A stretch of DNA of 64,000 bases from assembly GCA_905178155.1 (NCBI GenBank), contig CAJINV010000004.1:1580784-1644783 (forward strand), read 5' to 3'. The position numbers were made by a program, and so were the translations under genes. This DNA comes from Amoebophrya sp. A120 (Eukaryota > Protista > Dinoflagellata). Position 1 is the first letter of the stretch. Every line of letters starts with the position of its first letter. Below, piece after piece: positions 8,066-46,845 of this stretch. The notes below the pieces were generated by a model, which saw only the letters and a program-made list of their open reading frames with translations, was not told where the DNA came from and made no database searches.

Positions 8066-11000
8066 ATGATGTCGGCGGCGTCGGAGCAAAGGACGGCACC
8101 GCGACCTGCAGTCACTTGCTCGCAGCGACACCAGGGATCGACCGACAACAACTCATCTTTGAGAAGAAAACAGCGTCAACAACAAGCACCGGGGGCATGT
8201 TCTAGTGCTACTTTGCGAGGAGGACGAGGAGGAAGGACAACCACAACCATGTATCTTATGTAAAAACGTACCCACCCCATAGTCAAGATGGGGAATCGGC
8301 TAGACAAATCCACGAGCTTTGGCTGTTTCGCATGACAAATTTGGACGCGTAGTGTAGTACTGTTTGAGCTATTTCAGCAGCATTACAGATCTAGTCTCTC
8401 ATGCTGATTGGAGCATGACAAATTTCAAAACACCATTAGAAAATGCTTCTCATCGGGCTCCGCATGAGAAACATTTTAAGCATGCAGATTTGCATGACAA
8501 CTATGGTGTGGGTACGTTTTTACTCAGGATACCATGAGAGCTCTGTCCTCGGCTGCCGGTTTGCTATGCATTGCAAATATGTCTGGGTCTGGAAGAATGC
8601 AAACTTGTGATGCGCATTTCACAACGCATAAGAATCTCTCATGCATAGGCAGCAAAAGCTGCCTACTTTCTGTCACCAAAATCAGGCATCTGTGATGCAG
8701 ATTCGGCATTGCGGAAGCTTCTCGAAACCTGTGATGCTAGAGCTTCCATGCCAGACCTTCTGTGTCATGCAAAAGCAGCATGACTCTTCACTTCCAGACC
8801 CAGACATTTTTGCATTTGATATTTGCTGATCGGATGCAATTACGGTCCAGAACAAGTGTCGGCGCAAACGTTTACCTTCCAGATGGGGGGAGGCGGTGGG
8901 GTATCAAATGTAAAAATGTCTGGGTCTGGAAAGTTGGAACTTGTGATGCTAACTTTAGACTCTAAAAAAATCTGTATTGCATGACCAGCAAGAGGAGCCA
9001 CATTTGTGCTACGCGAGGAGGGCATTTGTCATGCGGAAATGGCATCAGGAAGCTTCCCATAAATCTGTGCTGCTGGGTCATGCATTACAAGCATCATGGA
9101 TCATGCCAGACAAGCATGACAAGCCTTCCATTCTTCCAGACCCAGACATTTTTACATTTGATATGGGGGCCTCGGCGACATTTTGGGCGCCATGATGGGC
9201 GGAGGAAGTGAGTTTTTTTTTGAAGACACATCTACCCTGGTAGAGCCTTTTCGTGGAGTGACTGGAGGGAGTTTCCCCCCGTCCGTTTTTGTATATGGGC
9301 TGGCAGATCCCTAGAAGCTAATGCCTGGAGTTGTTGGTCTTCCACCCCTCTGAGTGGGGTCGGGGAAGGAGCCAACGCGGACGTAGTCCGCAGATTTCGC
9401 TGGATAGGTTGCTTTGTGATGGATTCACATCGTTCTCGCGTTCTAATGAATGGTAGCTCATGTGCTCAGAGTGCACCGCAGCGCCATTCCGCCATTGAGG
9501 GCGTTTCCCAGCGGGGAAGGGTGATTTAGGAAGGTCGCGTTCTAATGAATGGTAGCTCATGTGCTCAGAGTGCACCGCAGTGCCATTCCGCCACTGAGGG
9601 CGTTTCCCAGCGGGGAAGGGTTATTTAGGAAGTTTTCGCTTTAATGGATGGTAGCTCATGTGCTCAGAGTGCACCGCAGTGCCATTCCGCCACTGAGGGC
9701 GCTTCCCAGCGGGGAGGATGGGTTTCAGGATGGTTTTGCGGTTTTTACAACTAGTAAGTGGATCAGGAGGTCGATGTACCAAGATGCCTACTCATGGATA
9801 TTTCTGTTTTTCGAGCCCGTGGGGATATGGGCTGTTCTTTGTTTTCGCTCCTCGTTAGGGCAGGATGTTTCATTCCGAGCTCTGGCCCTCAAGCTCGGGG
9901 TCCTAGATGGGCTGGCTGGAGTTTGTTTTTGTTCGCGTTTCTAGGGAATATGCGGCAGTGCTGGGGAGCATTATGGTGCTGCTCAGGGTGCAAGGCGGGT
10001 TTTGCTCGCCCTTCGATATGTTGCGGGTTTTTCAGCTTACTAGCTACTACTCCGAGTAAGGGCAGGAGGCTCCGAAGCCTCGTTTGGGAAGCCCTGTCGG
10101 GGCCGGATACCTCGCTGTGCTGGTTTTTTAGCGGAAGCCTCGTTTGGGATGACCCGCTTGTCTTGTCGGGTCGGCTAGGCTAGGATAGCTACCGGGGGTG
10201 GTCGAGAAGGCTTTTTGTGCTTTCCTGACGTTAGTCTGTTTAATCTGCTACTCTTGGATCGCATGGGATTTGAGTGCCACAGTGGGAGGCCAGCTTGGTG
10301 CTTGGCTGTTCTAGTCCGTCGCGTTAGCGCCATTTTGGGCGCCATTTTGGTTCTTGGAGCTTGGCGACATTTTGGGCGCCATGATGGGCGGAGGAAGTGA
10401 GTTTTTTTTTGAAGACACATGCGCGCCAAGCAAAAGAAACAGCGCCGGGGCGCAGCCGGCCGGCGTTGCGCCCCCTGGGCATTGGCCCGGCGCGCGAGCA
10501 GTGTATCCGGGCTGCGCGGGTGTCTGCGTTGTGTGGCCGCCGGTGTGTGCCCGCCCCCGCCCGCCGCCCTAGCAGGGCCGGCCGGGGCTTGGAAAGCGGA
10601 AGCGCGGAAGCCAGGCAGGCTCTTGTTCGCCCCTTTCGGTTTTTGTCGGTCCACCTCCGGCCGGCGCCGGACGTCGAGGTAGCCCGTCTGCCCGTGGCGC
10701 GTTGTTGGCAAGATGGAAAACCCGGGCGCGCGGCCTCTTGGCCGGATCTGCGAGTAGGGATGCCCATCAAGCGGAATTGCGACTGGCCGCGAAGGGAGGG
10801 CTGGGGCCGGTCGGCCTTCTCCTGGTCCCCGGCCGGTGGGTTTCGGGAGGGGAACAGGCTAGCGGAGGGCATCGGCAAGCAGCGGCAGGCGCAGAAGCTT
10901 GGCGCGCATCCGCGCTGCCGTGGTTTTATCGGGCCCTCCACAGAAAGTAAGGGGGTTCGGTTGAGGAGGCGCAGGGCCGACCGGGTGGGATTTTGGCCAT

Positions 11001-14000
11001 AAAGCTTGCCGGGCGGAGTCGGCCCTCCGCGCGAGGGGGGGGCCGGCTCGGTAGCCCAGCGGCAAGGCCCTGGCGCAAAGTACTTGCCGGGCGCGGAGGG
11101 CGCCCGCCGGTTTATACCGGAAAGGGCCGGGGTTGCGGTGTCTTTGGGGCCTGGCGCTTCTGGGGGGTATACGATTACCCAGCGACGACACCTCTCGCGG
11201 GGTGGGTGGGAGCATAGTTTTCGGAGGGCGCCATGATGGGCGGAGGAAGTGAGTTTTTTTTGAAAGGGTTCAATTTATTATGAAAGAAATAGGAAATCGA
11301 AATGGAAGCGATCCTCTGTGCAGCACGAAGATCATCTTGCATGGTTGTTGTTTGTTTTCTTGTTCAACACCCGTTCATTTTCATTACTGTCTGTATCATC
11401 TGCAAATATTACATGACTACAAATAAAACAGTGCAAGCGCAGGGTCCCCGGGAACTCCCGTGGCCGGCAGGCGTGACGCAGAAGGTGGATCCGTCGTTCG
11501 AGTGGCTTGTGAACACGGAGTGGGCGGTATCCGCGTGCACAAGAAGAACTCCTCCTCGTCTATTGCCGCGACATTTGATTTCATGCAGGAGAACACGATC
11601 CTATTCTAATCCTTGAATTCAATTTCAAGTTTGACTATTCCCGCATGACAAGCTCTTTGGTGAGGATCTGAAACCGCGTAGCGCACAGCACCGGACGGCG
11701 CTAAGTAGTAAGTACAGAGGTAGATGACCTCGAAGATCTAAATGGTTTGTCTTGCACAAAAAGCTGCTCCCAGCACGTGGTTCCAGCTGCTGATGAATGC
11801 TTCGGTTGCTGTAGATCATGCAAGAACGCAAATTATGGGGCGGGTCGGGGCAATTATTATGACACGGGGTCTCGTTCTTGCGCATCCTCATAGGCGGGTA
11901 AGGCAGGCTCCTACATTTTCAACCGCGACGGGGAGCTCGGGGGGACGGTAAAGTCCTGCGCTCGCCAGGAGGGGATCTGTAAGTGGAGCGCCACGAAGAC
12001 GCACGTCTACCTGAACACGCCCGACACGCAGAAGACGCCGGAGTCGGTGCTGAAATTAGTTGTCCGAGGTACTTATTTTTAGAAAAAACAGATGTATTGA
12101 TGGCGTTGGTTCTTCTCTAGTGGGGTTTTTGTTTCATTTTTTCGAAGAATATTTATGGAATTTCGATTTCAAAAAGCGACATGAAATAAAGCGAATCTTC
12201 AGCATGAGCAACTGCAACAGCAGCACCAGCAGCACACCAAGTTTTAGATAGTACCAGGCCTCCAGATGAAAAGGTAAAGAAGAAGATGATAGCTACAACA
12301 CCTTCTATCTTTCTAACTACAGGTTCCCAGGCGTACGAAAGCAAGAGTGCTGAGGCGAAAGCACGGCTGGACGCGCACAACGAGGAGGAGCTGAAGGCAA
12401 CGAGATTAGAGACCGCAAAAGCAGCCCGGGGAACCGGCAAGCCGAGTGTGATCACTTTCGTCAAAATCGCAGCAAGTGGCGAAGAGGACTCACGTAATAT
12501 TGATTGATTTTTCTACCGTCGAAATGATGTTGTAAAGGAATGATGAGGTAAAGGTGTATGTACATCACGTAGATTGTTGTAGAGTCATAGAATTTTTGCT
12601 ATATTTTCTGTTATGTGCTCAACCACGATCGTTGGACCAACGATTGGTTGAAAAGTGATTCGCGAGAAGAGCAACGCTCGAGTTTTTGGTTATAGAAACC
12701 CAACATATGCCTCACTTTGAATCTTGTTTTTTCACACCTATGATCAAGGATGCCGTGCCGGAACTCGTTCTTACAACGCCGCATCTGCAGTAAATTTTTG
12801 CGCAACGTATGAAATGAATTAATAATTCAAATTCCGTCTCTTCAACCTACTACAGTTTTAGCAGAGGATGCCTTCGCGGTGCTCGACGTGACGGAGGAGT
12901 CATCGCCGTCTGAAATCAAGAAATCCTATCGCATATCAAATGCAAAAGTGTCTGGGTCTGAAAAGGTTGAACTTGTATTGCGTGTCCAGGACTCCCGAAA
13001 AATTTGTATTGCATAAAAGCAACAAAAGCGCCACGATGTCGTCATGAAAGAGCGCAGTTTGCCATGCGCATTAAGCATGAGAAAGCGTTTGAAAAATTTG
13101 TCATGTAACACTGCACTTAGAGGCGCACTCACTCATGACCATTCAGCATTACAGGTTTGCAGACCCAGACATATTTGCATTTCATACCGCAAGAAGTCCG
13201 TGACACACCACCCAGACAAGGGAGGGGATCCCGCCCTGTTTGAGAAGATCCGTCAGGCGTACGAAATTTTGTCCGAGCCAGAGAAGAAAGAGCAGTACAT
13301 TGCTGGCGGTGCACTACTGGTGAAAAATGTGGAAACCTTCACGAAAGAAATGGAAGGACAGGTATAAATATTGACAGAAAACTTATAACTGATGGTAGAA
13401 GTAGAAGATAGAAGGCGTGGTCGTGGGGGTTAACTACGCGCAGTAGAAGATCTTCACGGTTAAGGATCAAAAGAGTCTTCAGATGTCCTGCTTGTGCGGG
13501 GCAATAAAAGCTCCGACTGACAGTCAGACGCTTACTTGCATTGTAAGATGCGGTATTAACCATAACCGCAAGGAGATAAATGAGGCGAAATGGACACCAC
13601 GCGACCATGAAGATGCTTTCACTTTAATAATGTACATCAGGTCGCGCAGCAAATGGCGCAGCTGGACCAGCAGATTCCGAAGAACCACCCCATGCGGGCC
13701 CAAGCCGAAGCGCAGATCAAGGCGCAGCAGCCCAACAAGGCGCAAATGAAGCAGCAGGTCGAGCAGCGCTTGCGACAGGAGGATGTCTCCGTAGACGTCC
13801 CCGTGTCCCTGGAGGAACTTTTTGCCGGAACGGAATCGGTATACCGTATTTTTGATATAGTGACCACAATGTGCTACTAGGTACAGTAGGATTGACAGTG
13901 ACAGGCTCAGGCTTGTTTTGTACAGGACAGTAAATAAACTGATAGCTTCTTGCACATCCAGAAAGAAATTTCGGGCCGCATCAAGATGCGTGGCGTTCTC

Positions 14001-22273: not shown

Positions 22274-23452
22274 AAGAACTCTTGCGCGCCCGCGCGGACA
22301 GTACAACTCATGGTTTATTTCACGCAGCCGGCGCATATAGGTTATTACTGGTGTGTGCCTTCGCCTGCGCGTGTGACTTCGATGACGTCGCCTGCGGGTG
22401 CTGGGGAGGGGTTGGGCGTCCGCGACGTCGTTGTTGCTGCTCTTCGGAGCTCGTGACGACTTCGTTGCAGCTTCCACATGGATGCTTGCTTGCATCTTGC
22501 AGGGCATGTTGTAGGTAGCACTTCGTGTGGAAGTATCAGGAGTGCTGACACGGAAGGAGAGCTGAGGAGCGTGGCCTATCGGCTTCGCGACTCCGTCCTT
22601 CGCTCCTCGGCGTCGGTCCGCCGGTGTTGATTGCTTGAATGCAGTCGACGCAGTCGAGGGGTTCAGCGGTTGGTGTGGGGGCGAGAGGGAGCGCTGCATA
22701 GATGCTCTTTTGCTTCTGTGAACAGGTTCGTTCTTCTCCTGCTTCGGGGTCTCCCAGGAGATCCTGACTCATCCAACGGGCCTGGGGACGCTTTTGTGGC
22801 CTTTGCGAAACTTAAAGCAATCACAGACGCGACAGATAATGTCTACTTACCGAGACGCGTGGTCGGTCGCGCAGTGCTTTGTGCTGCTTCCGCCACGAGA
22901 CGAGTCCGCGGAACCCTCCCGGGCCTTACTTATCTAGTCACATTTGGGAGCACGCCCCCACTATCCTCACCCGGTTCCCGGGTTGTGTCGCGGGGATATG
23001 TCCCGGCACGATTCCACAAGCCTCGCTACTTTGCTACGCCGCCCCGTGCGCCCTGCTCTCTGTCCCCGACAGTGCGGGCTGCCCCCTTTGTTTAGTCGCA
23101 TTTGGGGAAGACATTCGGCGGTCCCAGTCGCGCCTCGCGGCTTGGGCCACCTCTTCTATGTCCGGGGCATGGCTCTGTGGGGGTCGAGAGCCTGGCTTGC
23201 ATGGCCTGCTACCCGTAGCTCGTTGTGCCGGCCGGGTTCTCTCTTGGCTGCCATTGTGACTGTCGCTCGAGGTCTTGCGACTATCACTGCGACGCGCTTC
23301 TGCACGTCATTCGCTTCCGTTGGTTGCGCGCGCGTTCACTCTATGGGTGAATTGCGCAGAGAAGGCGAAATTATATACAACAAGAAGAAGAACTCTTGCG
23401 CGCCCGCGCGGACAGTACAACTCATGGTTTAATATTTCACGCAGCCGGCGCA
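22274..23452. mobile_element. TIR-less insertion of about 1 kb flanked by a 62-65 bp direct repeat
   Basis: Copies at 22274-22335 and 23388-23452 (3-bp indel). Confidence 0.75.
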
Positions 23453-30600: not shown

Positions 30601-32454
30601 TTGTCATGCTCCAACCAGCATGAGAGACTAGATCTGTAATGCTGCTGAACTAGCTCAAACAGCACTACACTACGCGTCCAAATTTGTCATGCGAAACAGC
30701 CAAAACTTGTGGATTTGTCTAGCCGATTCCCCATCTTGACTATGGGGTGGGTACGTTTTTACATAGGATAGATCGGGAAGTACCCCAAGGTGAGCCGCGT
30801 GTGGCTGCACTCGCTGGCCGCGCAGGGCATCGCGGAAGACATGTGGCACCAGCTGGAAATGTGCAAGGACTCCGGCCTGTTGACCGCCCAAGAACTCGGC
30901 TTGCTCGATATTACAGTGAAAAGTGCCCCCCACCCCAAAGTTGCAAAAATTTGTGATGCGAAGTTTCCAAATGAAAACTTTTTGTCATGCATGAAAGGAG
31001 TATGAATCTTTCTGATGCAGATTCTAGTCGTGTTTCGCATCGCTTACATGACAAGCACCGCTCTTGCTGGGATCTTTTGCAATACAAATTTTTGCTATTC
31101 ACGATCGGAAATCTGTGATGCTGATACATGCAAGAAAGCGAATGCTTCATTTGGAAAGGTTTGCAATACAAATGCTTTCAAGTTCGGGGGGGGGGGCATT
31201 TTTCATTGTAATACTCGACGCCAACGTGTTTCACCTGGTGCTGGACCATCTGGAAGCCTACAGCAACCTGGACCACTTGGACCATATTCTGCACCTCGAC
31301 CGTATTACAATGAAAAATGCCCCCACCCCCGAACTTGGGAGCATTTGTGTTGCAAACCTTTCCAAATGAAACATTCGCCCTCTTGCATCTATCAGCATCA
31401 CAGGTTTTCAGTCGTGAATAGCAAAAATTTGTATTGCAAAAGACCCCAGTAAGAGCGGCACTTGCCATGCAAGCTATGCGATACACGCCTACATTCTGCA
31501 TCAGAAAGATTCATACTCCTTTCATGCATGACAAAAAGTTTTCATTTGGAAACTTCGCATCACAAATTTTTGCAATTTAGGGGTGGGGGGCACTTTTCAC
31601 TGTGATAGACCGGGAAAGCAGTTCTAGAGCTGCTTTCGAGCAGCGCGGGCGGGAACAAGCGGGAGCGGAAGCGGTCGGGGGCACCAGCACGACATCATCG
31701 GCGCTGAAACAAGGAACAACAATACCAAATGACGCAGGTGCAGCATCATCCCCCGTGAGTAGCGCCCCGTCCACCCGACTCTCCGTTCCCACGACCCAGC
31801 ACCGACGCACCGTCAGCAAAGATGGCGGAAAGACGGAGGTTTCCATATCCTGAGTAAAAACGTACCCACACCAGAGTCAGGATGGGGATTTTGCAACACA
31901 AACCTAGGAGTTTTGTGAGTCACGCATGACAAGTTGCACTATGCAGCGTAGTGCAGGTTAGCAAGTGCAGCCGCATCACAGATTCATCTGCTCATCCTGT
32001 TCACAGCATCACAAATTCCAAATAAACACGATGGGATTGGCTCTCATGATGGGGATGCGCATTACAAGTCTGCCTGTCTTCGCAAATCTGCATTACAACT
32101 CTGGTGTGGGTACGTTTTTACTCAGGATATTCCACCCTGGCTGGGTCCATTCGGCCCGTGCAGTTTGACTTCTCCAAGGACAAGGAGCAGCGAGCCACAG
32201 TGCTGAAGATGCGGGAGCGAGTCTCCAAGAGCGTGAACAACCGAAAGTCTTGGCGGGGCGCGATCCAGCGAACCCGCAGCCTAATACGGTTGGGCGCGGC
32301 CAGTACGGTGCAGGCGACAACCTCGGGCGAGGAGGAACTACAGAATGAGAACGGCGAAGAAGTTCAAACAGGGCCAACCACGCAGGAGCCGGAGGCGGAA
32401 GCGAACCCGCTGCAAGCAGCGCTCGCGGAGGAGGAAGAAGTAGACGAGGAGTAA
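24617..32454 (+). CDS. Na+/H+ exchanger, CPA1 family (SOS1/NhaP-like), 12 introner introns
   Basis: Joined exons give IDPHVLFWVLLPFLLYE, ILSATDPVAVVGAL, LIAGEALMNDATAVV, VSGVLAVV, GGLRGAVGLAMAL and multiple TM helices. Confidence 0.92.
25106..25356. mobile_element. Introner, family A
   Basis: TIRs; DR aagag. Confidence 0.94.
25399..25678. mobile_element. Introner, family B
   Basis: TIRs; DR ctgct. Confidence 0.94.
25833..26111. mobile_element. Introner, family B
   Basis: TIRs; DR tcctg; near-identical to 31846-32129. Confidence 0.94.
26148..26416. mobile_element. Introner, family A
   Basis: TIRs; DR gggct. Confidence 0.94.
26607..26873. mobile_element. Introner, family A
   Basis: TIRs; DR tgctg. 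Confidence 0.93.
27120..27355. mobile_element. Introner, family A, left TIR largely deleted
   Basis: DR caagg; left end reads tatcaaatgcaacttgtc, lacking tgtctgggtctgga. Confidence 0.9.
27426..27695. mobile_element. Introner, family A
   Basis: TIRs; DR ccacg; splits NDAT|AVV. Confidence 0.93.
29016..29267. mobile_element. Introner, family A
   Basis: TIRs; DR ggagg. Confidence 0.94.
30491..30770. mobile_element. Introner, family B
   Basis: TIRs; DR gatcg. Confidence 0.94.
30909..31213. mobile_element. Introner, family D (tattaca.tgaaaa.tgccccc)
   Basis: TIRs; DR ctcga. Confidence 0.94.
31303..31607. mobile_element. Introner, family D, inverted copy of 30909-31213
   Basis: TIRs; DR gaccg. 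Confidence 0.94.
31846..32129. mobile_element. Introner, family B
   Basis: TIRs; DR ttcca. Confidence 0.94.
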
Positions 32455-33760
32455 GTAGGTTCCTAGTAGTGCTGCGTTCATATAATTTGCCTACCCAAAA
32501 AATTTTATTTGCAAAGCAAATTTGTTCAATCTGTTATCCTTATCGGCGACTCAACGTCGACGGCTGTCATTTGGACTCGTTGCAAACGGAGGAACAGGAA
32601 CTTCGTCCTCGAAGTAGACTACGACCCGATCGACGATTTTTGGATAGCACAAGCACACCTTGAACTGCATGGCAAACAATGTCTGTAATTGATCGATTCT
32701 ACATATTTCTGTTGTGTGATAGTGATGTGTCGTGTGTGCTTTGAATGTCAAGTACCTCTTAAGATGCCTATTAAGCATGATCGCTTGACTGAAAATACAA
32801 ATAGCTCCACCCAGGCAGGCGAAATAGATGCGAATCGACAATGCTGGAGATGGTCCCCGGTTTCTATTCACGAATTTATGCAATGAAGCATTCCCCATGT
32901 TGCTGGAAGTGATATTGATCCCCCAAATCATTCCTAGTTAGACCACAGCAGCTAAGTACTGCAGTTTCATCGTGCAACGGTGGAAGATCATCGCCACGAG
33001 GAGCAACTTTTACAGGCTCCATGTTTCATTGCCTTCAAAGGTCGAGAATCGCTTCTGATGACCCTTGATGTTCTTCTGGAACTTAAAAAAAAAAACGGCT
33101 GCGTTCCTTTTCCCGTACACGTTGTCGTGAAATAAGTAAGACGGGCCGTTTCAGTTCCATCCCAGAATTCCCATATTTGACTTTTGGATGTGTAGTGTTG
33201 CCCGACAAGAAATCATTATCATACTTACATGATGATCTTGACGAAGACAAAGACATCGGAGCTGCTGCCAATCGCTCTTTATGAATTGTGGCTGTACTAT
33301 TGTTGCACCCACGACTATTGATGTCGATCTATCTTCTTCGTTCCCCATACCTTTAGCTCTTTCTTGGCGTGCCACTTTTTTGCCGCAAGAGAGGGGACAA
33401 CTTCTATGGATACTAACCAACGGGTGTAGCTGCATATTGTGAAATAGATCTACCCGCAGCTCCACCTGGGTACTATATTCATGCAGAAGTAGAGCGAGGA
33501 CGCAGAGGATAGCAAAAATGCAGAATAACAATCCGCCCCGCAACTATACTTTTTTTCTACTAAACTACTCGTTTACAACTTCGTGCAGCTGCTGCTTGTT
33601 TTGGATATACAAGACCTCCGGGACTTTATTTTTCAATCTATGATTGAAGTTGAAGACGTCGTCTAGATTTCCGTTTCGGTTTTTGTGGCTTGATTGTGAA
33701 ACGCAAACATTACTGCAGCCGTGTAGTTATACGTATATATAATTTAAGAAAAAGAAATTC

Positions 33761-36700
33761 ATGATGATGCAGCACCTTCACCAACGTCCACCACGCGGCT
33801 CCCACCGTACAGCTAGAAGAACTCCGGCACAATTAGTATGGCTCGCGTTCTTAGTACAAAAATCCTACCTGCTTGCCATTCTACCTTGGGAGATCTTCAC
33901 CGCGCGGGGAGTGCGAGTGCCAGTGGTCGACGAAGGGAAGATGAACGGCGGAGCACTGAGAGGTCACACTCCGAATGATCTGGAGGACGGTGGTTGTCGC
34001 CTCGTCGGTCCTGCCGACGACTCGACGCTTCGTTTCGAGTCCAAAGAAGCTTTGGTGGCGCAGCTGAGTTACTTGCTGGCAATGGAGGGTGAAGAAGATC
34101 AGGGACGGGCGCCGGGGATATCCTTTTATAATTTGGATGCTTTTAGTTTGGACAAAAGTGCAAATACTGGCCCACCTCCTCTTGAGCACGTTACTAGTAC
34201 TTGTCATGGTTCGGAGAGCAAGAAGTCCATGTTGGAGGACGACAAATCATGCAAGGAGCTACGACATGGAGTTGCAGGATCCCAGCCAGCTACAAGAACA
34301 TCTGCTTCCCCCGCGGCCACAAGTAGACCAACCACAGAGGTGGGTCGTGACAGGAAATTTTGGTGCAAACACGCAACCATCCTCGCCGGGAAGATTCTCG
34401 CGGCACCACTGTGCGCTCTGGGCCTGGTCCCGCTGGCACACGCCTGCCCCGCCTGGGGATGCACGCAGGCCACGTGCCCGGCCACCGCTGCCGCACTGCA
34501 CGCCCAGAATTGTGTCCTCCCGTGCGGGGGCTACAAGATGACCGGTCCGTGCTTGGCAGGCGTGATGGCCGCACAGAACACTTGCGTGGAGGCCACCGCC
34601 CTCGGCGCCCAGGCCCGCGAGTTCGCCCCGAAAGCGTGGGCGTTACGGAAAAAATTGCTGACGGACAGCGACGAGGTGGAACTACGACAAAGAGCAGGAC
34701 GGAAAATAAACGGAATAGAGGACAAAGACGAATCGAGAACGAGATCACCCGGCCACGACCCTTCTCCCGATCATGAGCCATTGGGGACGAGTTGTATCCT
34801 GAGTGAAAACCACGCTCTCCGTGCGCCATAGTACTCAAGTATAGGGACCACGTGGCTACACAAATAAGCCAGAAGCTTTGGGACTCCCACAGGACAAGTT
34901 ATTGGCTGTTTTGTTGTAAGTGAAGGTTCGCTGCAAGAAGGACAACCGCAACCGGATCAGAAAGCGATCTCCTCAACATCCTGTTTACAGCATTACAGAT
35001 TCCAAAAAACGAGAACTGAAAGTGCTTCCCATGGGGATGCCGCGCATTACAAGTGTAGTTCCTGTAAAATAATAATTTGCAAATCTGCAGGACGAGAACT
35101 ATGGGGCGGGGACTTTTTTGCTCAGGATAAGAACGAGAAACAAGCTGAAGTCCTTCGAGGAATTCCTACAGCGCCGCTTTCAACTTGAATTTCTAGGCGA
35201 GCGAGACCCGACAGGAGCCGCGATAGTAGAGATTGGCAGAGGTGGTGGAGTACCGGGACCTCGTTGTAGTGCTCCACTGCAACAAGAAATGCTGCTGGGT
35301 CCACCTCACAAGCAGCAAGATGAAGCACCAGCGGCAGCTGCTCGCGTCGGAGAACGTAGTTCACGAGAAAATAAATCTGCGCCTTTGAAGATGTCCTCCG
35401 ACAGTGTTGGAGGAGGTGTGGGAGTACTATCCTGTAGAAAAAGCACTTTTACATCTACATCTACCCTCCGCACGAAAGACCGCGTGTACGACCGCATTCT
35501 CAGAAGCGTGGATAAACAAAATCTCCCTTACCTGCAGCGCGAAAGCTACTACTTGCAGAAAAGAAATGCTCGCGCCGGTTCCCGTAGTACTAGCTTCGAA
35601 GATTCTACTGGAGCTGAAATTGGTATAGTGCCAAGGGAGATGGAAATGAATCGAGATCGTGCGAAGATGGAAATAAACCCAGCACTGGGAAATATAGCAA
35701 ATACGATGAACACGACGAGGACAAGCTGTATGAACCCCGGCGAGAGCACCGACATCAACGCCGTAGCTGTAACGCCGCCGGCGCAGCAGAGCATGACCAC
35801 ATTTTTGCACAGCGCGCCAGCATCCTCGCACCTGTCCGCTGATCATGTCCCCTACGCGGTCGGGGACACTTCTACGCAAGAGTTTTCGCAAGGCGCATTG
35901 ACGGCCAACAGTGAACAAATAGACGGTGGGCTCAGCTTACCCACATCAACCATTTTCGCTAGAAGTGCCTCGTCTGTGTTTGAATTTCCCACCATTCCGC
36001 ATCCACCCGGTGTGGACGCAGCGGATGAAGGCGCGGATAGTACTACAACACGGGGAAACGCCGAGTCGTTTTCTGCTGGTGCAGGAGATGTGCAAGAACA
36101 CCCGGCTACACAAACGGGGTCGTTGAACCACGACCAGGCGCACCATCCCACAGCCTCAGCGGATGCGGGTGGGCTACGTCTTGGAAGGAATAAAGTAGAA
36201 GTAGAACCAGTAGGCGCAGGCGATCTTTTTGCAGCTGCTTCTTGTGCTGCGGAAGATGTCGCACATCATCCTGTGCAGCTTTTTTTCGCGGATGATTCAT
36301 GCAGCGGCTCTTGTTCTTCTTTGCGAGGAGCAAAATTATCGACGACGCTCTCTGCGGCAAGTGGAGCAGCAGAAAAATCACGGTCGCAAGAAGCTGCTGG
36401 TGCTGCGGCAGCAGCCACAGCTGCCCCCGGGGGCGGCGCACGCCCCCCGGCACCAAGTTGTGTCGATTGGCAGAAGGAGATACACGCCCACTGGGCCTCG
36501 CTCACCCTGGTCGAGAAAACCCGGGCTGTTCTCGAGGCCAATGCCTTGATCGAAAAGCGCGCGCAGGCGAATATGGCCTTGGGAAACGCGTGGATGCTGC
36601 CAGCAGTGCGGGGCGAGAACAACGAGGACCTTGGGGCGGTCGACCGAAATGCTGCAAGACCCACTAGTACTCGTTGTTGTCCACCTCTACAACGAGCAGC

Positions 36701-36797
36701 GAAGAAGAAGACGGGAGAAACAGAAAGCAAGGACATCATCACGAAAACGAGCAACCTCAGTGTTACTCCCATAACGCACCCCCTTGCTCACAAATGA
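33761..36797 (+). CDS. Hypothetical Cys-rich/low-complexity protein, 5' part, cut at about 36763 by a 5.1-kb insertion
   Basis: ORFs 33761 and 35118 join in frame across introner 34795-35129; the last codons run into the insertion. Confidence 0.55.
34795..35129. mobile_element. Introner, family B, diverged
   Basis: tatcctgag...ctcaggata; degenerate DR agttg/agaac. Confidence 0.82.
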
Positions 36798-37723
36798 AAA
36801 AACTCCGAAAGGATTCCGACGAGATTACGAAACTGCGAATGAAAATTGCTGCGGAGGAACTTGCCAAAAATACAGTTTTCGAGATATGAAAAGACGAAAC
36901 GCTTTTTAAAAAAAAGAAGAAAACAATAACAGCACGCTTTCATTGGTTGAGCAACAAACGCGCTCCGCATTTTTACCCCGCCCGGGGAGGCGGCGACACT
37001 GTAACCTTGACGAAAGCGATTCTCACGACTTTGAAACGGCGATGGTGACGATTTTGAAACGGCGACGGTGACGATGAAACGACTGGGGCGATAAACTACG
37101 CCCGAACTTTTACCCCGCCCGGGGAGGCGGATGATGGAACAAGCGGTCAATCGTAGTCATCTATCCAAAGGCTGATCATGAAGACCAGTTGGAGCCGTCT
37201 TTCTCAGGTTGATAATGAAGGGCAGGCTCGCGACCTAATTAGCTCCAGGCTGTTCCTCAGGGTGTGGCGTTGCTCCTCAGGGTTTTCTATGTCAGTTGCC
37301 GTCTAAGTCTTCAGGGTTTTCCGTGTCAGAGTCGTCCTCCAGCTCCACGTCGGACTCCGTGTCCGACTCAAGGGATGAAATGCAAAAGCGTTGGGATCTG
37401 GTGGAATGCAAAGCGTCTGTTCAAAACAGTGGCACAGCACCGGGGAAAGAACGACTTCAACTGCACTCGCTGGCTCTCAGATGGAAAACAATCTGCCAGA
37501 TCCATACGCTGGGTGTGGATAACAACACAATGGGATCGTCCGGGGTGCCCGTTCCCGCGCGCGGGGGAGGCGGCGCTGGCGGTCCGTCGTCTGCCATAGT
37601 TGGAAAGCAGCGGCAACAAAGAGTCAATGTATTCAGTTTCTAAAGGGAACAAGTTTCCACAACAAAGCTTCCACAAAAAAGATTCAGTTTCTAAAGGGAA
37701 CAAGGCGAGCGAAAGCTATGCTC

Positions 37724-37898
37724 AAACATGTTTTCAATACAGAAAAGAGACATGAAAAACATGTGTTCAATACAGAAAAGAGACATGAAAAACATGCGTT
37801 CAATACAGAAAAGAGACATGAAAAACATGTGCTCAATACAGAAAAGAGACATGCTTGCAATACAGAAAAGAGCATGCTTCAATACAGAAAAGAAACAG
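37724..37898. repeat. 33-bp tandem repeat (four full and two partial units)
   Basis: aaacatgtgttcaatacagaaaagagacatgaa units. Confidence 0.92.
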
Positions 37899-38531
37899 GA
37901 TACAAACTGGAAAAGTTTCATCGACAGGAACAAAAAGAACCATGGACACAAAACTCCGGCTCTCCATGGAGGTGGAGTGTACCCGAGCGCACGGCTATGA
38001 AGAGGCAAAATATGTCGGGGCCTACACGTGCGATTTAGATTTTGGACAGGACGACAATAGGACGACGCGCTAAATTTTGAACAGATTGAGTTTCAAACGC
38101 AAGACATGAGCATGACAACCCCTTTGCATGACCAGCCTCCAGACATATTGCAATAGATAAACTTCCAGGCGTTGCATGTTGCACATCTCACATGCTCTAA
38201 ATTCACCTGAGTAATCGATGGGCTTCGAGTTGAGTAATCGATGGGCTTACTTTTTGACAGTCTGTGTCGAAAGAAATGCACGCAAAAAGAGAGAAGCATT
38301 GCCAAAAGAAGAAAACAACCTAAACAAAGTACGCAAATAGCATAAAAAAGTAAACAAATAGAGTACCGCTATATTGCAGGAGTTCTGCAGTATAAAACAT
38401 ATTGCAGAATGCAGCGGCTCCAAAAAAGCGCGGGGGTTTTTGGCGGCGAGCACCTCCGCTCGGTTCGAAACGATGTTGCCCGCTTTTAGTTGTTCGTACA
38501 ATTTACTCGTATTCGGTGCTGCAGCTACTGA

Positions 38532-38750
38532 TATCAAATGTCAAAATGTCTGCGTCTGGGAACTTGTGATGCTGTGCGGCGTATCATGAGGAGGCGACAA
38601 TTGCTGGCTCAGCATGAAAAGTTTCTGAGCTTCTAGGTGTTGCCTATTTTGCATGACAGACTACGTTTCTGCATGACAGATTTAAGAGTCATGCCAGACA
38701 AGCATGACAAACTTGCATTCTTCCAGCCCCGGACATTTTTGCATTTGATA
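38532..38750. mobile_element. Introner, family A, inside the large insertion
   Basis: TIRs; DR actga. Confidence 0.88.
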
Positions 38751-39349
38751 ACTGAAGCTTACCCCTACGACGGCGGGTGAAATTCAGGCGTCGCAATACT
38801 TTTAAAGGACTTTCAAAAAACTTTGAAAATTTCAAACTTTCTTGGTCGCCCACATGAAAAAAAAACGCAGAAAGTTGCCCGCCGGCTTGGAAAAAAAAAA
38901 TCGCCTCTTGGCAGTATGTGGCAGGAAAAAAAAAGTCGGAAACGACGCGCAGACCCAAAAAAAAAGCAGCAGGAGGAGGCTGCGTCTGGGTTTTCTTTTT
39001 TTGCTCTTTGGCCTCATAGCAAAAGGACTGCTCTGCGCTTCATGGGCGCGACAGAAATCGCACACATTTGGTGGGGAGCACTTCATGCAAAGTCCCCCTG
39101 TCCCCTTCCAAAAAAAGAAAGGCGTCGCCCGGTAGTAACTCGGCGAAAAAAATGGCACGGCTGCGGCAGTGGTCTGGCGAAATTTGTTGCAGCTACGCTT
39201 GGCGGCTTTTCGCAATATCAAGCGCCACAGTTACGGCGCGAAACGGGGCCGGCCCCGGGTCCGGCCGCCCATTATGGGCGACCGGCATCGCGGGATCCGT
39301 TTGTAAGCGGCTGCGTTTGGAAGCCGTGTATGAATGAAACGGAAAAATT

Positions 39350-39915
39350 GCGTAGAGAATACCATGCGGCACGCGCCTCGCACCGGGGGCACGGTGGGAG
39401 TTGGTTCGCCCAAATGGCGCGGTGTTCGGGACGGCCAAAGTGCCCGAATCCGCTCGGGGAACGTGTTAAAAACACAGTCAATTCCCTGGCCCGATTCTGC
39501 CTGCGGCCAGAAAAGTCGCGAGTTTTCCTGCTCAAAAGACTTTGAAAAGACTTTGAAAAAACTTTGGAAAGACTTTGGGAAAAGCGCCCAGAAGTGCGCG
39601 CTTTTTGAAAGCTTCGCCCGATGGTATGGCCAATTTTGGCCATGCAAAAACGGGAACGCTTTTCAAAGTCTTTTCAAAGTCTTTTCGAAGTCTTTTCCAA
39701 AGTCTTTTCAAAGTCTTTTCGAAGTCTTTTGAAAGTCTTGCGTCTGACTTTGGCGAGGCGGCCGGACCTCAGACTTTGGCGCGGGAAGTTGGGCCATACC
39801 GTCGGGATTCGGCCAGTCGGCCGGGTCCAAAAGAGACAAAGAAGGCCAATTTTGGCCATTTGTGTGCTGCCATGCCCCCGGGGCTGCGCGCGTGCCGCAT
39901 GGTATTCTGGGCACC
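39350..39915. repeat. Large imperfect palindrome with opposed 12-bp arrays
   Basis: gaataccatgcggcacgcgc (about 39357) mirrors gcgcgtgccgcatggtattc (about 39888); aaagactttgaa arrays mirror ttcaaagtcttt arrays. Confidence 0.82.
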
Positions 39916-40621
39916 AAATTCGCGGCGCCGCGAAGTTGGAAGGCGGCGCGGCGCATGTGACACATGGGGGGTCGCAGTACCACCGGCGCTGCGCGCGTGC
40001 CGCCTGGGTATCTGGCCGCATCTTTCCTAGCGCCGCCTCCGAAGCGGAAGCAGCTCGCGGCGCCGCGAAGTTGGGGGCATGTGACACACGGGGCGTCGTA
40101 GTGCCGCCGGCGCGGCATGCGTGCCGCGTTACAATCTGGCAGCGTTTTTCCTTCTGCCTATGCCACGCCCCAAGTGGGCCCACTGCTTTAACGCGCCGCG
40201 CAGTCCCCTACTACAGCAACAAATGGCGACGGAACTTCGCGCGCCCTTTCGCCCTCGCTGTGTTTTTTTCTTGATGTTGGAAAGGGCCGCGCCCAGCAAC
40301 GCGCCGGGGGCGCAGCCTCTTACCTAGCGCGCCATCCGGGCAACGGGAAGCGCAGGGGGACAGCGACAGGGCATGGGGCAACCAAAAGAAGGGCGCCAGC
40401 GTGTGGCGCGCGGCCCGCAAGCAAAAGTTTTATCATAGTTCTGCCCAAGTATTTCGGCTGGAGGAAACGCCTGGGCGTCGTAGGTGTAAGAAGCGTTCTT
40501 TTGCGGTGCCGGCTCCCGTTCTGCCACGCGGCTGGGCAGGACGCGACTCGCATTCTTGTTGTGTGTGAGCATAAGACGTTCCTGTTGGTCCGGCAGCAAG
40601 GCGTTGTAAGCTCTGAAGAGT

Positions 40622-40736
40622 TATCAAGTGCAAATATGTTCGAGTCTGGAAGGATGTGAAACCTGCTTTCTTCTGCATAAGAAGCCTGAGCGTGCAAATC
40701 TTCGTCTTCCAGACCCAAACACATTTGCATTGCATA
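40622..40736. mobile_element. Mini family-A element (115 bp)
   Basis: Both TIRs with almost no interior; DR poorly preserved. Confidence 0.72.
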
Positions 40737-41872
40737 AAAATGCACCGAACCCTAAGCGCACTCGTTCCCGCACACAGCCATCAGGTATGCACTGCAAGAG
40801 CATCGCACTCGTCGGAGTCTCTTTATGCGCGAATTGCGCGCAAGAGTAGCGAGTGCGATACTTTTGCCAGAAAGCAAGGACATGAGGAGAAACAGAAAGC
40901 AAGGACATCATCACGAAAACGAGCAACCTCAGTGTTACTCCCGTAACGCACCCCCTCCCAAGGCCGGCCGAAAACATCCCACGGCCGGGCCCGTGCTCGT
41001 AGTTAGTCAAATGCACGACGTTGTCACCCATCACAATGAGCAAGAGTCTGTACGTTCACTACCCCGGCCGCCTCCGTCGTGAAGTTTGGTTGCGGTCGTC
41101 GGAGAAGGGCCAGAACCTACAGAAGGAGAAGGAGTTATTACAGCGAAAAAGCCCGCAGCCATCTCAAGACGCGCTGTCTGAGAACAAAAACCACGACTGT
41201 CCTGCATGACAATTTTGGGTGGTCTGTCGGCTTTTTTAACGGAATAGGTGCGGGCGTTTGACTACTCTGCCCGCCGCGTTCTTTGCCTTGACGCGGAAAA
41301 CAACAAGCAGACAGACACCAACCCGACAGACAACAACCAGACAGCAGCAAAACAGCACCCAAAAAACAACAGCCTCCACCGACCTGGCGCCCGGGCTGCA
41401 GCGTCTTCTACCAAAGCGGCAGCGGCAACAGCGCTCAGCAACTTCTGCCGGAACGCCGGAATAAACCCCGCAAATGCCACAAAAGGTAACAGGAACATTG
41501 GCCCCCGGGCTTTTGTAGTGCGGATTTGACTTCGCAGAAAGATTTTTAATGCAAGAACTGCATTGATTTTTATACGAGTGCGATACTTTTGCAAAGGATA
41601 GCCATTGAGCTGGAGCGGCTCCGGATCCCCACGCAGCCACGCCGTATCCTGTGTGAGTTTTCCCGCACTGCCTCTTCGTGCGGCGCTCACGTCGCGAGCC
41701 ACGTCGGGAAACTGTGCACACAGGATAAAGCTAGTCAGCAGTTTAGGGCCCGGATATGATAGATGGGCGGCGTGAAGGCGTGCAAGGCGCGCAAGCAAAA
41801 GAACAGAACGAGCGTTCCCGCCGATGCATTTGCGGGCCAGAGTCTCGAGCAGCTACAGGCTGCAACAAGAAG

Positions 41873-44718
41873 AGAAAGCAAGGACATCATCACGAAAACG
41901 AGCAACCTCAGTGTCGAGGCTCGGCTGCTCAAGCGCGCAGGGTTAATATTGAAGCAGGGAGATGAAAATGAACAACGAGTATCATCTGTGGATAAAACTC
42001 GTCGTCCCGAAGATCTTCTTGATGCACGGAACAAATTAATCCCCTAGAACACCTGGCGCTGGCGCTGAACCAGAAGACGCTGAAAATAATTGTATCGAAA
42101 TTCTAAACGAGAGCTCCTGCGCAACAACTCGCAAGGATCATCTCCTTGCAGAAGAGCATGAACAGTCCCCACCTGCCACTAGTGCAGCCTCCGCTGTTGT
42201 TCCTCTTGCGCGAGACGAAGAAGTAGACGGAAGTGCGGAGGAGGACGCGTTTGATTTCTTAGTTGACATCCTTCGTGCGGACCCGGAGCAGGACCATGTG
42301 GTGGCTCAAGAGGCACGGGGGCACCTTGCGGAAAACAAGAGAGCTACTGCTACACCAGCGGATGCGGATGTGGAAATACAACCAGCACACGAACATCAAG
42401 AGCATCCAGTACTCGTTTCGCAAGAAAAACTGCGGCAATTTTTGAAAGTGCTGCGTCCCTACTTACGCACACTGGAAAAACGGATCGCGGTTGCCGGCGG
42501 TGGAGCTGCTGCGGTTGAAGATGTTGTAGTTGCCGGTGAAACAGGTTCAAAGGAAAATGATGAAAACGTCGACCACCTCCAGCAAAGAACAAGCATCATG
42601 ACAGTAGAGCCACCTCCTTGCCCGGAGCCGGAGGTGATAGGACTAGCTTCCTCGACGACGACGCACTTCGTACCGCGACCACAGCAAGAGGAGATGATGT
42701 TGAGCGCTAGGATTAGCCGCGACGTGGACCACACCTCCATGCCGCACTTTCCGCGCGGACACACGCAGCCGCTGTTGCGACGGCAAAGACGGGAACTACA
42801 GAATCAACGGCGGTCTGATCCTGCCAGCTGCATCCTCGTGGACGATACCACTAATAAAGAAACCGGTCGCGCGCACACCCCGGTGGGACCCACGTGCGAC
42901 CCCTGTTGCGTGATGACGGTCGGGCGCGCGCGCGGGTTGGGGTGTTGCGAGCAGGGACTGTGCGAGCCGTGTCTGTGCGAGGACAACTGGAACCCGAAGC
43001 CGTTTTCCGCCGTGGAGCGCAACGTGTGCGACGGCCGCGTGCGAGCCTGCCTGCTGTGCTGCTGCGTGTCCTGCTACATCCCCTACCACTGCGGCCCGGC
43101 CTGCGCCCTGCAGCCGGGCTGCGCAGAGGCCGCCGCAGCGGATTTCTGCGCAGAATCCCGTCGCACCGCTGCCGCGGCGAGGGCGGTGCGCGAGGGAATG
43201 GTCGGCGTCGGCGCGATATCAAACAGGAAAGTACTTACTGTTACACCCAGCTGTAGGCTTGGTGCCATATCAGAAGACTAAGTATTTGTCCTCGTGAAAT
43301 TTTTGGCATCACAGACACAGTGCCTATTGTTTGTCCAGAAGCAGTTTATTTTTTGGCTTCATTTTTGATTTTGTCATTCGCTGTGGCTTCTCGCATTTGC
43401 GTTTTGCATGACCACAAATGAGCGTCTCCATATTTCTTTTCTCTGAATGACAGCGACGTGCGGCCACTTCAACATATACAAATTCGTATTCGTTTTTTTC
43501 TGGTTGTACAACTATGTGGGTACTTTTCTCCATGATACGCTTCCTGCGGGGTCTGCTGTAGCCTGAAAATGTTGCGTGGCTACTGCAACAAGGCTGCGGA
43601 GTTGCAGAAGGTACTGTATAATACTCTGATTTGCCTGTCGTGCGGCCGTTTTGTTCTGGACATGCATAGTGGGACGAGATCAAGGGAAGTTCTTATGTAA
43701 TATTTTTGGAGCTTGTGAATCGCTACAATGCCCGCCATGATCATCATTCCCTGCTTTATTATTGCCACAGGCCTGGAATTTGCAGCTTCACGAGGTGCCG
43801 CAGCACCACGGAGGACAGAGTAGTGTCGTGCACGGGTCGACGTCCCGAGCAGAAGTGACTTTGGTACAACAACAGCCGGGGACCACGACTTCTACACCAG
43901 GTCGCGTGCTACTTACTCCTGGTACCACGTCTGCAACAGAAACTTCTACGACGCCTGGCGCTGCTCAACACGACGACAGCCACCACCTCTCTCGGTGCGA
44001 CCACTGTTTCCGTGGCGTGTCGCTGACGTTCGCCGGGTATCAAATGTAAAAATGTCTGGGTCTGGAACAGTCATGCTGTTTTTGCATGACACAGAAGGTC
44101 TGGCATGGAATATCTAGCATCACTGGTTTCGAGAAGCTTCCGCAATGCCGAATCCGCATGACACATCCCCCACTTTGGTGACAGAAACTGGGCAGCTTTT
44201 GCTACCTATGCATGAGAGATTTTTCTGTGTGCTGAAATGCGCATCACAAGTTTGTATTCTTCCAGACCCAGACATTTTTACAGTTGATACCGGGTACTCG
44301 GAGGCGTGGGCCCGTGCCGCTGCGGGCGAGTATCATATGTAAAAGCGTCTTCGCCCGATAGTCAAGTTGGGAACTTAGCAACACAACTCCAGAAGTTTTG
44401 GGAGCCACGCATGACAAGTTGCAGTCCGTAGTGTAGTGCAGGTCGGCAACGGAGATCGCATCACAAATCTATCTGCTGATCCTGTTTTCAGCATTACAAA
44501 TAACAAAACACGATTGAAAATGCCTTTCTTGGGTCAGCGCATTGCAAATGTTCCTATAGAATCGCAAATCGAAATCTGCATGACAACTCTGGGGTGGGGA
44601 CATTTTTACACAGAATAACGAGGGCTGGTTGTTTCCGGATACCTGCAATCAGCTGCAGAAAGTGGAGGAGTTGGAAAGAGTCTGCGAAGAAATGAGGACC
44701 AAATGCAGGACTGTTTGA
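41873..44718 (+). CDS. Probable 3' part of the 33761 gene (Cys-rich); possibly pseudogenised
   Basis: Frame resumes at the duplicated ESKDIITKTSNLSV. There is a stop/frame break near 42040-42047, then a long ORF and in-frame joins across introners 43217, 44038 and 44331 to a stop at 44718. Confidence 0.5.
43217..43537. mobile_element. Introner, minor family (aaagtac), diverged
   Basis: tatc...aaagtac / gtacttttctccatgata; DR cgcga/cgctt; frame restored. Confidence 0.72.
44038..44289. mobile_element. Introner, family A
   Basis: TIRs; DR ccggg. Confidence 0.93.
44331..44617. mobile_element. Introner, family B, diverged
   Basis: TIRs; DR gcgag/acgag. Confidence 0.87.
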
Positions 44719-46845
44719 GATGGAACGCATGAAGATCCTGGTGGAGAAGTTGGAACAACGCATATTAGAAGAAACCTGCGCCGTTGCCGGAGAATAGATG
44801 TAGTTCTCGACCCGGCGTGCGCGAACCTGCAATTTTGATGCATGAACGAAAGGTATTTTTGATTTTTTTGATGAATAAACATTTTTACAGCTGCTTGGGG
44901 ACGATCTTGATCTAGATGTACTTACTCAGGCTCACCAAGAAAGAGGATCGGTCCACTACTTCGCGCCGGATCGATCTTCTGTCTTCTGCTGTTGACCTTT
45001 TTGCCGCCTGAGATTTTTGTCCATGAGATGAATGACTGGCGTTCAGAAACGTCTTCTCGTCTCAGATTGAATGAACAATGACAAAATGACTAAATGAGCA
45101 CATTATTTGAAACCACTGGTGACGCATGACACCTAGGGTTACGTTTTCTCTGTTACAGCTTGCTTTACACTTGTTTCATCAATACATTTCGCGAATTATT
45201 CTACTTGATTTCAACGTTTGACTAAACCTGTTTTCCTTTTCTGATGATCACAATTTCTATAGATCTGTATCTTACAACTTGACGCCAGTTTCCGTCCTCA
45301 CTTGCAATTCTCTATTGTGTTGGTGACCTGCGGTAGGGGTGTAGGTAGTGTCAGCAGCACGACGATGAGGCGAAGACATCGAGTTATTGAAAGTATCACA
45401 CTGGTGATCGACGCTAGGGCTAGCTAGCGCTAACTTTATTGCCATTTTGACAGCTAATGTTGACGACTTTGAAACTAGTATGCTGTAAAATATTTCAAGC
45501 ACCACGAGTCGTCTCATGAGTATCTATGTATGTATTATTTATGTATAGAAGATTTACTGATTTAGAACGGTGAAAATGAAATTGAATATAGAAGAAGAAG
45601 CAAAGGGGAGAGAACAGCAGCAGCACGGAATTTTTTGCTTTGCCCAGAAACAAAAGTTTGAGGACAAATGGAAACAGATTTTGACGCCGGAAGCTACTAC
45701 TACGCGGAGCGGGACCCGGAAACCGGAAACCGGAAACGCAGCTGCACCAGGTGCAATTGCTTCCCGTCTGGCCGCTTGTTTTGTTGTAGCCGATAGCGTT
45801 TTCGACGATGTGTTCTATGACGAAGTCAGGAGGTTGACGAATGTAGGCCGGATCAGATGCAAGAACCACACACGTGAAGAGCCTTTTGTACTACTTATCG
45901 TCTAAATGTGGAGGACCTTGATGAAGTTCTTGGGTTCCTCTTTTTGTAGAAGCGATCTAAAGATCATCAATGTCAGTTATCCTCCTCGTGGAGTGCAGTT
46001 GATCTAGAAGATGGCTCAGCTCGATGCGATTGTATTCGCTTGTCATCTGTTGCGGTGACGGTTTGAATCGATCATTTCCACCGCTACATGATAGATTTAT
46101 TTGAACCAGTTTCCTTTCCACCGGTGCTGAAGATCCCCTTCCTGACATTGTTCAACGACCTAGCGCGGATCTTGCAGCGTTCTTTTTTTTCCGGTTTTCT
46201 CGTTCTCGATGAATGTCGCTGAGATTTTTTTTGTCGTGCTGAATGAATCAATTCTTGCTAAAATTTTTCGATCGTGTCCTCCGGGTCAGGTTCCGGTCGT
46301 GAAAATTTTTACATTGCAAGTGCAACGCAGTCCAGGTAGAGTTAGTTTTGGTATTCATTTTCATCGTCATTCCGTAAGCCTGTCGTTTTTTGCGTGTACT
46401 TTCTTACATTTTCACACACATTTTCACTTGACCTGGTCGTGTAGATCGAGCCGCGCAAGAACGTCCGTATGAATTCCGCTGCGTGCTGCTCGAGCCTGTG
46501 CACAGTTTGTATCTTGATATTTTTGCTGGACCTGCATATGTGTCTCCACTTAAACCTTACAACTTTGAGCTCGTGCATAAAATGAGAATCATCAACACAT
46601 AATGAGGGCTGTATCCGAGGCACAAGTATCTCCGAGTATTAGACGTACTTAATACGCTTTTTTCATCTGCGACGCTTTGTGTCGTCTCAGCGTCGATTCG
46701 TCTCGCGGCTCTGCGAATAAAGAAGAAGATCGAAGCGACTTTTGCGTCAACAAGAAGTGCTACGTCGATTTGGATTTTGCGGCTCCTGGTCTACGATTTC
46801 GCGGCTGGCCGGGGGCAATTTTGTCGAGAAATATATAAAAATAAA

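Follow-up and report, generated by a model that had tools for sequence, protein, structure and literature searches.

Whether the 5.1-kb block that interrupts a coding sequence in the dinoflagellate Amoebophrya sp. A120 is a genuine insertion, and how a block carrying an internal copy of its own target could have formed, is the question raised by this locus. The block lies at 36714-41914 of the window, the whole analyzed stretch of 64,000 nucleotides (contig CAJINV010000004.1, positions 1,580,784 to 1,644,783 of the forward strand). The target codons that the original prediction, made from the letters alone, had placed at 36722, 40894, and 41873 proved to be an exact 42-bp repeat present three times (36722-36763, 40894-40935, and 41873-41914), and the first two copies were alike over 71 bp with one mismatch (36714-36784 vs 40886-40956, blastn E 2e-28). 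The resulting order was target (50 bp), insert 1 (4104 bp), a 16-bp abortive copy with 2 extra bases, target (50 bp), insert 2 (937 bp), and target (42 bp). The abortive copy had gone unnoticed in the original prediction. Matches between target and junction filler were judged against 1086 control 50-mers.

36714..36763, plus strand: target copy 1 (8-bp extension and 42-bp core), with the insertion point after 36763
36764..40867, no strand assigned: insert 1, 4104 bp (2144 bp without two nested elements)
40868..40885, plus strand: abortive 16-bp target copy (40868-40883) and 2 extra bases, matching 36721-36736 (0 of 1086 control 50-mers as good)
40886..40935, plus strand: target copy 2, 50 bp, exact
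40936..41872, no strand assigned: insert 2, 937 bp, held in one 966-bp DNA contig of depth 44
41873..41914, plus strand: target copy 3, 42 bp, exact

Both inserts started at the same target base, and 21 of their first 22 bases were identical. The target copies showed 0 mismatches over 92 compared positions, indicating a divergence of less than about 3% since the event. The far junctions of the inserts were variable and irregular. Insert 2 ends with 8 bp that match the target and suggested filler (53 of 2116 controls as good), but the match was weak when a wider target was taken (101 of 1086).

Read support for this layout came from a DNA run (X1) assembled into 31-mer contigs, which is possibly the window's own source and hence not independent; such contigs are evidence of presence and no proof of absence. 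Along the repeat, X1 contig depths were 46, 97, 143, 93, 41, 46, and 44, in the ratio 1:2:3:2:1 that the window predicts, with unique flanks at 41-46, two-copy parts at 97 and 93, and the 42-bp core at 143. These depths fitted three copies, in line with a three-copy locus that is real and no mis-assembly. A collapsed or misjoined assembly, named beforehand as a refuting case, could draw on the block order across the 42-bp repeat, which the 31-mer contigs do not fix. Its probability is negligible given core depths of 1:2:3:2 and single-copy flanks free of differing letters.

The host locus consists of two exons upstream of the insertion point and coding sequence that resumes after the third target copy. 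The window is rich in TATC...GATA introners, which have been described for the A120 genome (PMC7789003), and one of them separates the upstream exons.

33761..34793, plus strand: host exon 1 (open reading frame (ORF) 33743-34831; first ATG 33761; junction PLGTS/SRNKL in the annotated protein P0001)
34794..35133, plus strand: ordinary TATC...GATA introner intron (inverted ends 34795-35129; RNA contigs of runs X3 and X4 restart at 35134)
35134..36763, plus strand: host exon 2 up to the insertion point (ORF 35076-36797; RNA contigs 35134-36743; P0001)
41915..42047, plus strand: resumed host coding sequence (EARLLKRAG...), ending with TAG at 42045-42047
42040..43215, plus strand: host coding sequence in the next frame (P0002 starts at ATG 42598)

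When 36764-41914 was taken out (5151 bp, a multiple of 3), the 35076 frame ran in frame into EARLLKRAGL until the TAG at 42045-42047. Ten other ORFs of the window served to train a 3-periodic coding model, which gave +5.5 for the 154 bp upstream of copy 1 and +4.7, in the same frame, for the 126 bp downstream of copy 3; the best values for the cargo adjacent to the junctions were -1.2 and -1.8, with the 99th percentile of the null at +1.5. Exact copies, frame joining, and coding scores therefore agree with the earlier claims that the insertion splits a coding exon, holds an internal target copy, and is followed by resumed host coding only after the third copy. To judge from frame and composition, a single exon most likely once comprised the left flank, the target, and the right flank. 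It is less likely that the halves were separate genes from the outset, or paralogs of each other: BLASTP between them gave E 0.94, the flank alignment was equalled by 226 of 283 controls, and the coding scores favored joined flanks.

In the annotation, the host locus is divided into four models, P0001-P0004. The frame 35136-36794 matched P0001 (GSA120T00000040001, 791 aa) at 100%, the annotated start of which is 34083 rather than the first ATG at 33761, and the frame 42040-43215 matched P0002 (GSA120T00000043001, 361 aa) at 100%. Neither protein had a Pfam family or a relative. Ortholog searches returned only A120's own models (1 match per search; 1 among 1.84 billion representatives), a pattern search gave 107 matches with 0 confirmed, and the best score in the Atlas was 0.80, at chance level. 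Since no ortholog was found, the one-exon reading draws on the window itself.

Whether the gene could still work was judged from transcripts. None of the listed runs is recorded as RNA; the contigs of X3, X4, X5, and X6, all from one sample, were treated as such, as they skip 41134-41249 and X1 does not; the raw RNA run X9, with 84 reads at introner ends only, was uninformative on 36714-41914. RNA contigs passed from the target into insert 1 in all four RNA runs and entered insert 2 from its first base in 3/3 (X3, X5, and X6). Insert 1 ends the host frame after 10 codons, with TGA 36795-36797, which is the end of P0001. Downstream, a one-base frame break could be narrowed to 42040-42047, where four C follow one another; it was present without a gap in one DNA contig (41885-44060) and two RNA contigs (41885-43215 and 41885-42900). 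It is probably a slip in the C run, before or after the insertion. Because RNA contigs run into the cargo and the frame break is transcribed, the gene has most likely been split and no longer functions as a unit. Of the two readings once offered for the break near 42040, a decaying gene is supported, and unusual splicing of the whole block is not, RNA contigs entering both cargos.

The splicing alternative would make the 5151-bp block a giant non-canonical intron removed via the 42-bp repeats, with a programmed +1 frameshift at CCC-TAG restoring a working gene. Excision does keep the frame, and the two frames overlap by just two codons, at CCC-TAG (42042-42047), a sequence that may be a +1 shifty stop. 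Many non-canonical introns are spliced in A120 (PMC7789003). Against this, RNA contigs continue from the target into both cargos, the block lacks inverted ends and an introner-like 5-bp duplication, and a C-run slip is the simpler account of the break, so that this alternative is very improbable. A minor skipped transcript may exist alongside read-through, to which 31-mer contigs are blind. Depth arithmetic for such a form gave +3.5, about -2, and at least +4.5 of about 20 in the short RNA contigs and +4 of 95 in DNA, and contig depth cannot rank the gene parts.

What the inserts have in common is their beginning. Nothing in the window predicts a contig break in the start of either cargo, yet X1 breaks in both, at two variants of one repeated end.

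36763..36842, no strand assigned: element end, variant a (TTACTCCC...), of which about 80 bp appear common to other loci
40935..40974, no strand assigned: element end, variant b, common to about two other loci

For variant a, an X1 contig ends at 36792 (the 30-mer starting at the matching base 36763) and the next starts at 36813, suggesting that the variant is common to other loci. For variant b, an X1 contig with unrelated upstream sequence joins at 40935, a contig of depth 80 has 40937-40974 with one mismatch and diverges after, and bin arithmetic gave about three copies of this end. Both cargos thus start with variants of one repeated element end, a conclusion that is drawn indirectly for the variant-a half. 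Because both open in this way, the true target duplications, as read from the sequence, are 50 and 42 bp and not 71 bp. The earlier claim that copies 1 and 2 share about 21 bp of cargo held for the sharing (21/22) and failed for its nature, these bases being a repeated element end rather than plain cargo. Two insertions about 20 bp apart, one of the two origins proposed at that time, are not supported, given the same-base starts and the sharing of each end variant with other loci; the other, template switching back to the target, is consistent with the junctions.

Beyond 22 bp, the two cargos were unrelated apart from an introner end. No inverted partner of the element end was found in either cargo or elsewhere in the window, and Rfam gave 0 matches at E<=0.5 in 33000-45000, with no hammerhead; a hairpin or hammerhead at the element end was not supported by Rfam or by shuffle z-scores. 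A search of viral and metagenome contigs for the element-end pattern gave 0 matches, as did a search of 12 of the 14 supplementary files (1-12) of PMC12130899, in cells of up to 400 characters.

The layout recurs. A direct-repeat scan of the window, with introner families and tandem arrays set aside, yielded three loci with long target-like repeats, the locus above and two others.

9174..11265, plus strand: second locus, a three-copy layout inside a GT-AG intron, with copies at 9174, 10363, and 11226
22274..23452, plus strand: third locus, a single insert of about 1.05 kb between 62/65-bp direct repeats at 22274 and 23388

At the second locus, the exact repeats were 58, 58, and 36 bp, of which the target share was about 50, 50, and 40 bp, and they covered the exon end and donor site. 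The insertion would lie a few bases into the predicted GT-AG intron, and the flanking exons join in frame. Its two unrelated cargos had their 7 first bases in common, and one contained 99-bp tandem repeats; no TTAC/TATC-type end was present, and a T9 run was mostly native. A 15-bp target match stood directly before the middle copy (1 of 1086 controls as good), and no significant filler was found at the other three of the five far junctions examined. As a separate observation, two tandem GCCATTTTGG motifs occur at 10329-10350, right before the middle target copy, and the whole window has no more than these 2, where 0.23 would be expected. They are a tentative candidate for a relic of the dinoflagellate spliced leader, for which TCAAG is given in PMC7789003. 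By eye, the second target had no obvious likeness to the first, and no clear shared motif was seen among the three window targets and one outside flank. The unlike targets at two loci argue for nick re-use over sequence-specific double hits. The 10-mer CAACAAGAAG was found at the far junction of insert 2 (41863-41872) and at that of the third locus, accounting for 2 of its 6 occurrences in the window.

Considering these features together, we tentatively favor, at a little below an even chance, a nick-primed single-strand insertion that jumped back, recopied the target, and re-used the nick, leaving two inserts with variants of the same end in tandem at one base. Jump-back copying would fit because the same base was used twice, the far ends vary irregularly, and the duplicated stretch is found upstream of the conserved end. 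The plus strand would have been nicked after 36763. From the 3' end at the nick, synthesis would have followed a template that was read starting at its element end, most likely a non-autonomous RNA copied by target-primed reverse transcription, with the enzyme, of LINE (long interspersed nuclear element) or Penelope type, supplied by a gene at another place. The newly made strand would then have annealed with its far end to the target upstream and aborted after 16 nt; copying would have restarted at 36714 and run to the nick, rebuilding the original primer end. A second template with the same kind of end would have been added there and closed by a 42-bp recopy. The nested introner and the 1.7-kb inverted-repeat element in insert 1 are probably later arrivals, and a one-base slip would break the downstream frame.

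Several of these steps have precedents. For R2, it has been proposed that the template jump to upstream target precedes second-strand cleavage, and the proposal has been extended to elements with target duplications (PMC6895275); R2 proteins jump to further templates (PMC11371274). The target duplication of R9 reaches up to 126 bp (PMC6895275), and duplications of 126 bp and longer, including long ones for Dualen, have been reported (PMC9977147). Tandem dimers of LINEs and transposons retain a target copy at the junction, of 33 nt for R1 (10.1101/158386), and non-long terminal repeat (LTR) retrotransposons are present in A120 (PMC7789003; PMC12130899). How the far end is joined and how long target duplications originate in nick-primed integration are described as poorly understood (PMC6895275). 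Of the LINE features, a conserved 3' end, a variable 5' end, and a variable-length duplication were found, if the polarity is as we suppose; an ORF for reverse transcriptase and endonuclease was not found among the cargo ORFs tested.

A number of results weigh against this account. Copy-paste predicts a donor, but among the X1 contigs neither 40977-41490 (at 85% likeness) nor 36813-37762 (at 90%) had a second copy; segregation could have removed the donors. The ORFs tested (4 of 17 and 13 proteins) gave only weak or unrelated Pfam matches, none of them to a reverse transcriptase, endonuclease, transposase, or other mobile-element family; the absence of such families is compatible with a non-autonomous insert. 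No poly(A) tail was seen at either end at this locus. The fold of the element end was no better than that of shuffles (z 0.15 and 0.84). Target filler was significant at only 2 of 5 far junctions over the three loci, and the 15-bp match of the second locus overlaps the tandem GCCATTTTGG repeat and may not be filler. The CAACAAGAAG 10-mer at two far junctions could instead be a 3' tail of opposite polarity. In addition, the TTACTCCC end resembles the TTAC...GTAA ends of inverted-repeat elements in the window, and one outside copy of the element end sits behind coding-like sequence, in the fashion of introners.

A related possibility, which deserves attention although we hold it to be less probable than not, is that undescribed A120 machinery loads unrelated DNA or RNA with a short shared end serially into one nick and copies the target anew each time, over about 50 bp and then over about 40 bp. 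The main rival to the favored account, though rather unlikely, is a one-ended cut-and-paste, in which a DDE transposase joined one introner-type inverted-repeat end, with DNA attached to it, to the target, and 42-50 bp were duplicated when host repair dealt with the broken far end; this would have happened twice at the same base, with the orphan end guiding the second event. The end is indeed like those of the TTAC...GTAA elements with 5-bp duplications in the window, inverted-repeat elements are abundant in A120 (PMC7789003), and a single-copy cargo with old introners suits moved rather than copied DNA. One-ended events of retroviral integrase likewise leave large duplications of host sequence, with one end precise and the other truncated (PMC5041404). 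Yet this explanation demands two aberrant events at one base, at two loci in 64 kb, with far junctions just 8-11 bp apart, no partner end was found, and the second locus lacks a TTAC/TATC-type end.

The start of both cargos exactly at a repeated element end, with each variant branching to other loci, also bears on host break repair alone, in which templated insertions were made and 71 bp, among them the 21 bp that open the cargo, were duplicated, as in the earlier proposal of insertions 20 bp apart. Such repair would account for the patchwork cargo, the junction filler, and the lack of a mobile-element protein, but a local duplication would leave variant a without relatives of its own, and we regard it as improbable. 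Also hard to reconcile with the locus is rolling-circle transfer of the HUH, Helitron-like type, by which a single DNA strand was joined to the nick from a conserved end, read through into captured host DNA, and closed by host repair. Helitrons likewise start at a conserved and stop at a variable end, bypass their 3' end, and capture DNA with introns in it (PMC4778049), and one A120 family has a Zn_Tnp_IS91 match (PMC12130899 supplement), which serves as a lead only. Their TC start, CTAG end, preference for A|T targets, and lack of target duplication (PMC4778049) all differ from what was found at 36714-41914, making this origin distinctly improbable.

Every ingredient of the locus is known from other systems. 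Tandem transposable element (TE) dimers, reported for R1, jockey, and the P element (10.1101/158386), have the same target-insert-target-insert-target plan with an internal target copy kept, and the internal copy and the shared insertion base were both found here. The A120 inserts differ in sharing just a short end, in having unequal duplications and an abortive copy ahead of the middle one, and in the absence of an evident target motif between loci. R9, Dualen, and R2 (PMC9977147; PMC6895275) are alike in having one conserved and one variable end and a long duplication on the expected side; unlike them, the A120 inserts showed no reverse transcriptase/endonuclease ORF, poly(A), site-specific multicopy target, or donor copy. 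Penelope-like elements (PMC8557442) resemble the inserts in partial tandems, in non-autonomous copies similar at the 3' end, and in intron retention. The A120 cargos had no pseudo-LTR beyond 22 bp (save the introner end) and no hammerhead, and the 30-40-bp 'tail' of Penelope-like elements is an extension of the insertion unit (PMC8557442), whereas the A120 repeat is host coding sequence.

Amoebophrya introners (PMC7789003; PMC12130899) occur in the same genome, have similar TA/TTAC ends, and are nested several times in the cargo. In contrast to introners, which are two-ended, flanked by 3-5-bp repeats, and spliced out, inserts 1 and 2 are one-ended, flanked by 42-50-bp repeats, and entered by RNA contigs; two-ended inverted repeats were absent from them, and the 3-5-bp repeat was found at the nested elements only. 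In the rows for 22 of the 58 A120 families in the supplement of PMC12130899, the automated duplication lengths, where given, are 2-5 bp. One-ended retroviral integration (PMC5041404) is alike in one precise end, one repaired end, and an enlarged host duplication; those events are drug- or mutation-induced, their duplications are often hundreds to thousands of bp, and no repeated nick use is described in the passages of PMC5041404 consulted. Within the literature searched, which for Amoebophrya comprised passages of the main text of PMC7789003 and of PMC12130899, no description of long target duplications or of a three-copy layout was found for Amoebophrya. We conclude that the locus is a real, recent gene-breaking double insertion and a variant of tandem insertion, its interest coming mainly from recurrence.

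If the favored nick re-use is true, the two three-copy loci with abortive copies would be natural snapshots of jump-back and re-priming, and Amoebophrya would gain a gene-breaking insertion class beside introners. On the reading of undescribed serial-loading machinery, three long-duplication loci in 64 kb mean that this could be a common, unrecognized class of gene-breaking insertions in A120 and a natural record of serial re-priming. If the layout is rare genome-wide, the locus would be merely a well-resolved scar. For annotation, the consequence is that one broken gene has turned into the four models P0001-P0004.

The cargos themselves carry further features.

38532..38750, no strand assigned: nested introner in insert 1, with a perfect 5-bp target duplication ACTGA
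38759..40489, no strand assigned: nested 1731-bp non-autonomous inverted-repeat element (TTAC...GTAA), with a perfect 5-bp duplication GAAGC
41134..41249, plus strand: degenerate introner-type intron in insert 2 (joint 41133>41250 in 3/3 RNA runs and 0/1 DNA run)

Insert 1 contains 33-bp tandem repeats, annotated as ORF P0003, and degenerate introners. A decayed-looking frame with an acidic stretch lies at 37292-37639 (minus strand), with no Pfam match and a low coding score. The 1731-bp element is present in about six near-identical copies (DNA contig depths 255 and 283 vs 43); it has 11-bp internal repeats, and a 96% copy occurs within a 4.2-kb putative RNA contig. Insert 2 also contains degenerate introners, together with the spliced annotated ORF P0004, whose 125 aa result from the skipping of 41134-41249 in RNA. 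No annotated protein corresponded to 9 of the 10 candidate cargo ORFs. RNA coverage was low at 39419-39825, and no conclusion is based on it.

At those junction ends that could be seen, introner excision began 1 base ahead of the left inverted end and finished 4 bases past the right one, and degenerate copies were no exception. This rule was compared at 34794-35133, at 41134-41249, and at the introner from 43216 (plus-strand host junction ends 35134 and 43215). As the cut at 41134-41249 matches that of plus-strand host introns, the transcripts of insert 2 are likely from the plus strand. Elsewhere in the window, a 306-bp inverted repeat (92%) at 30909-31607 consists of two facing TTACAG...GTAA elements 87 bp apart, and the sole Pfam match among 17 long ORFs was a sodium/hydrogen exchanger domain (PF00999, E 2.5e-12) at 27569-29185.

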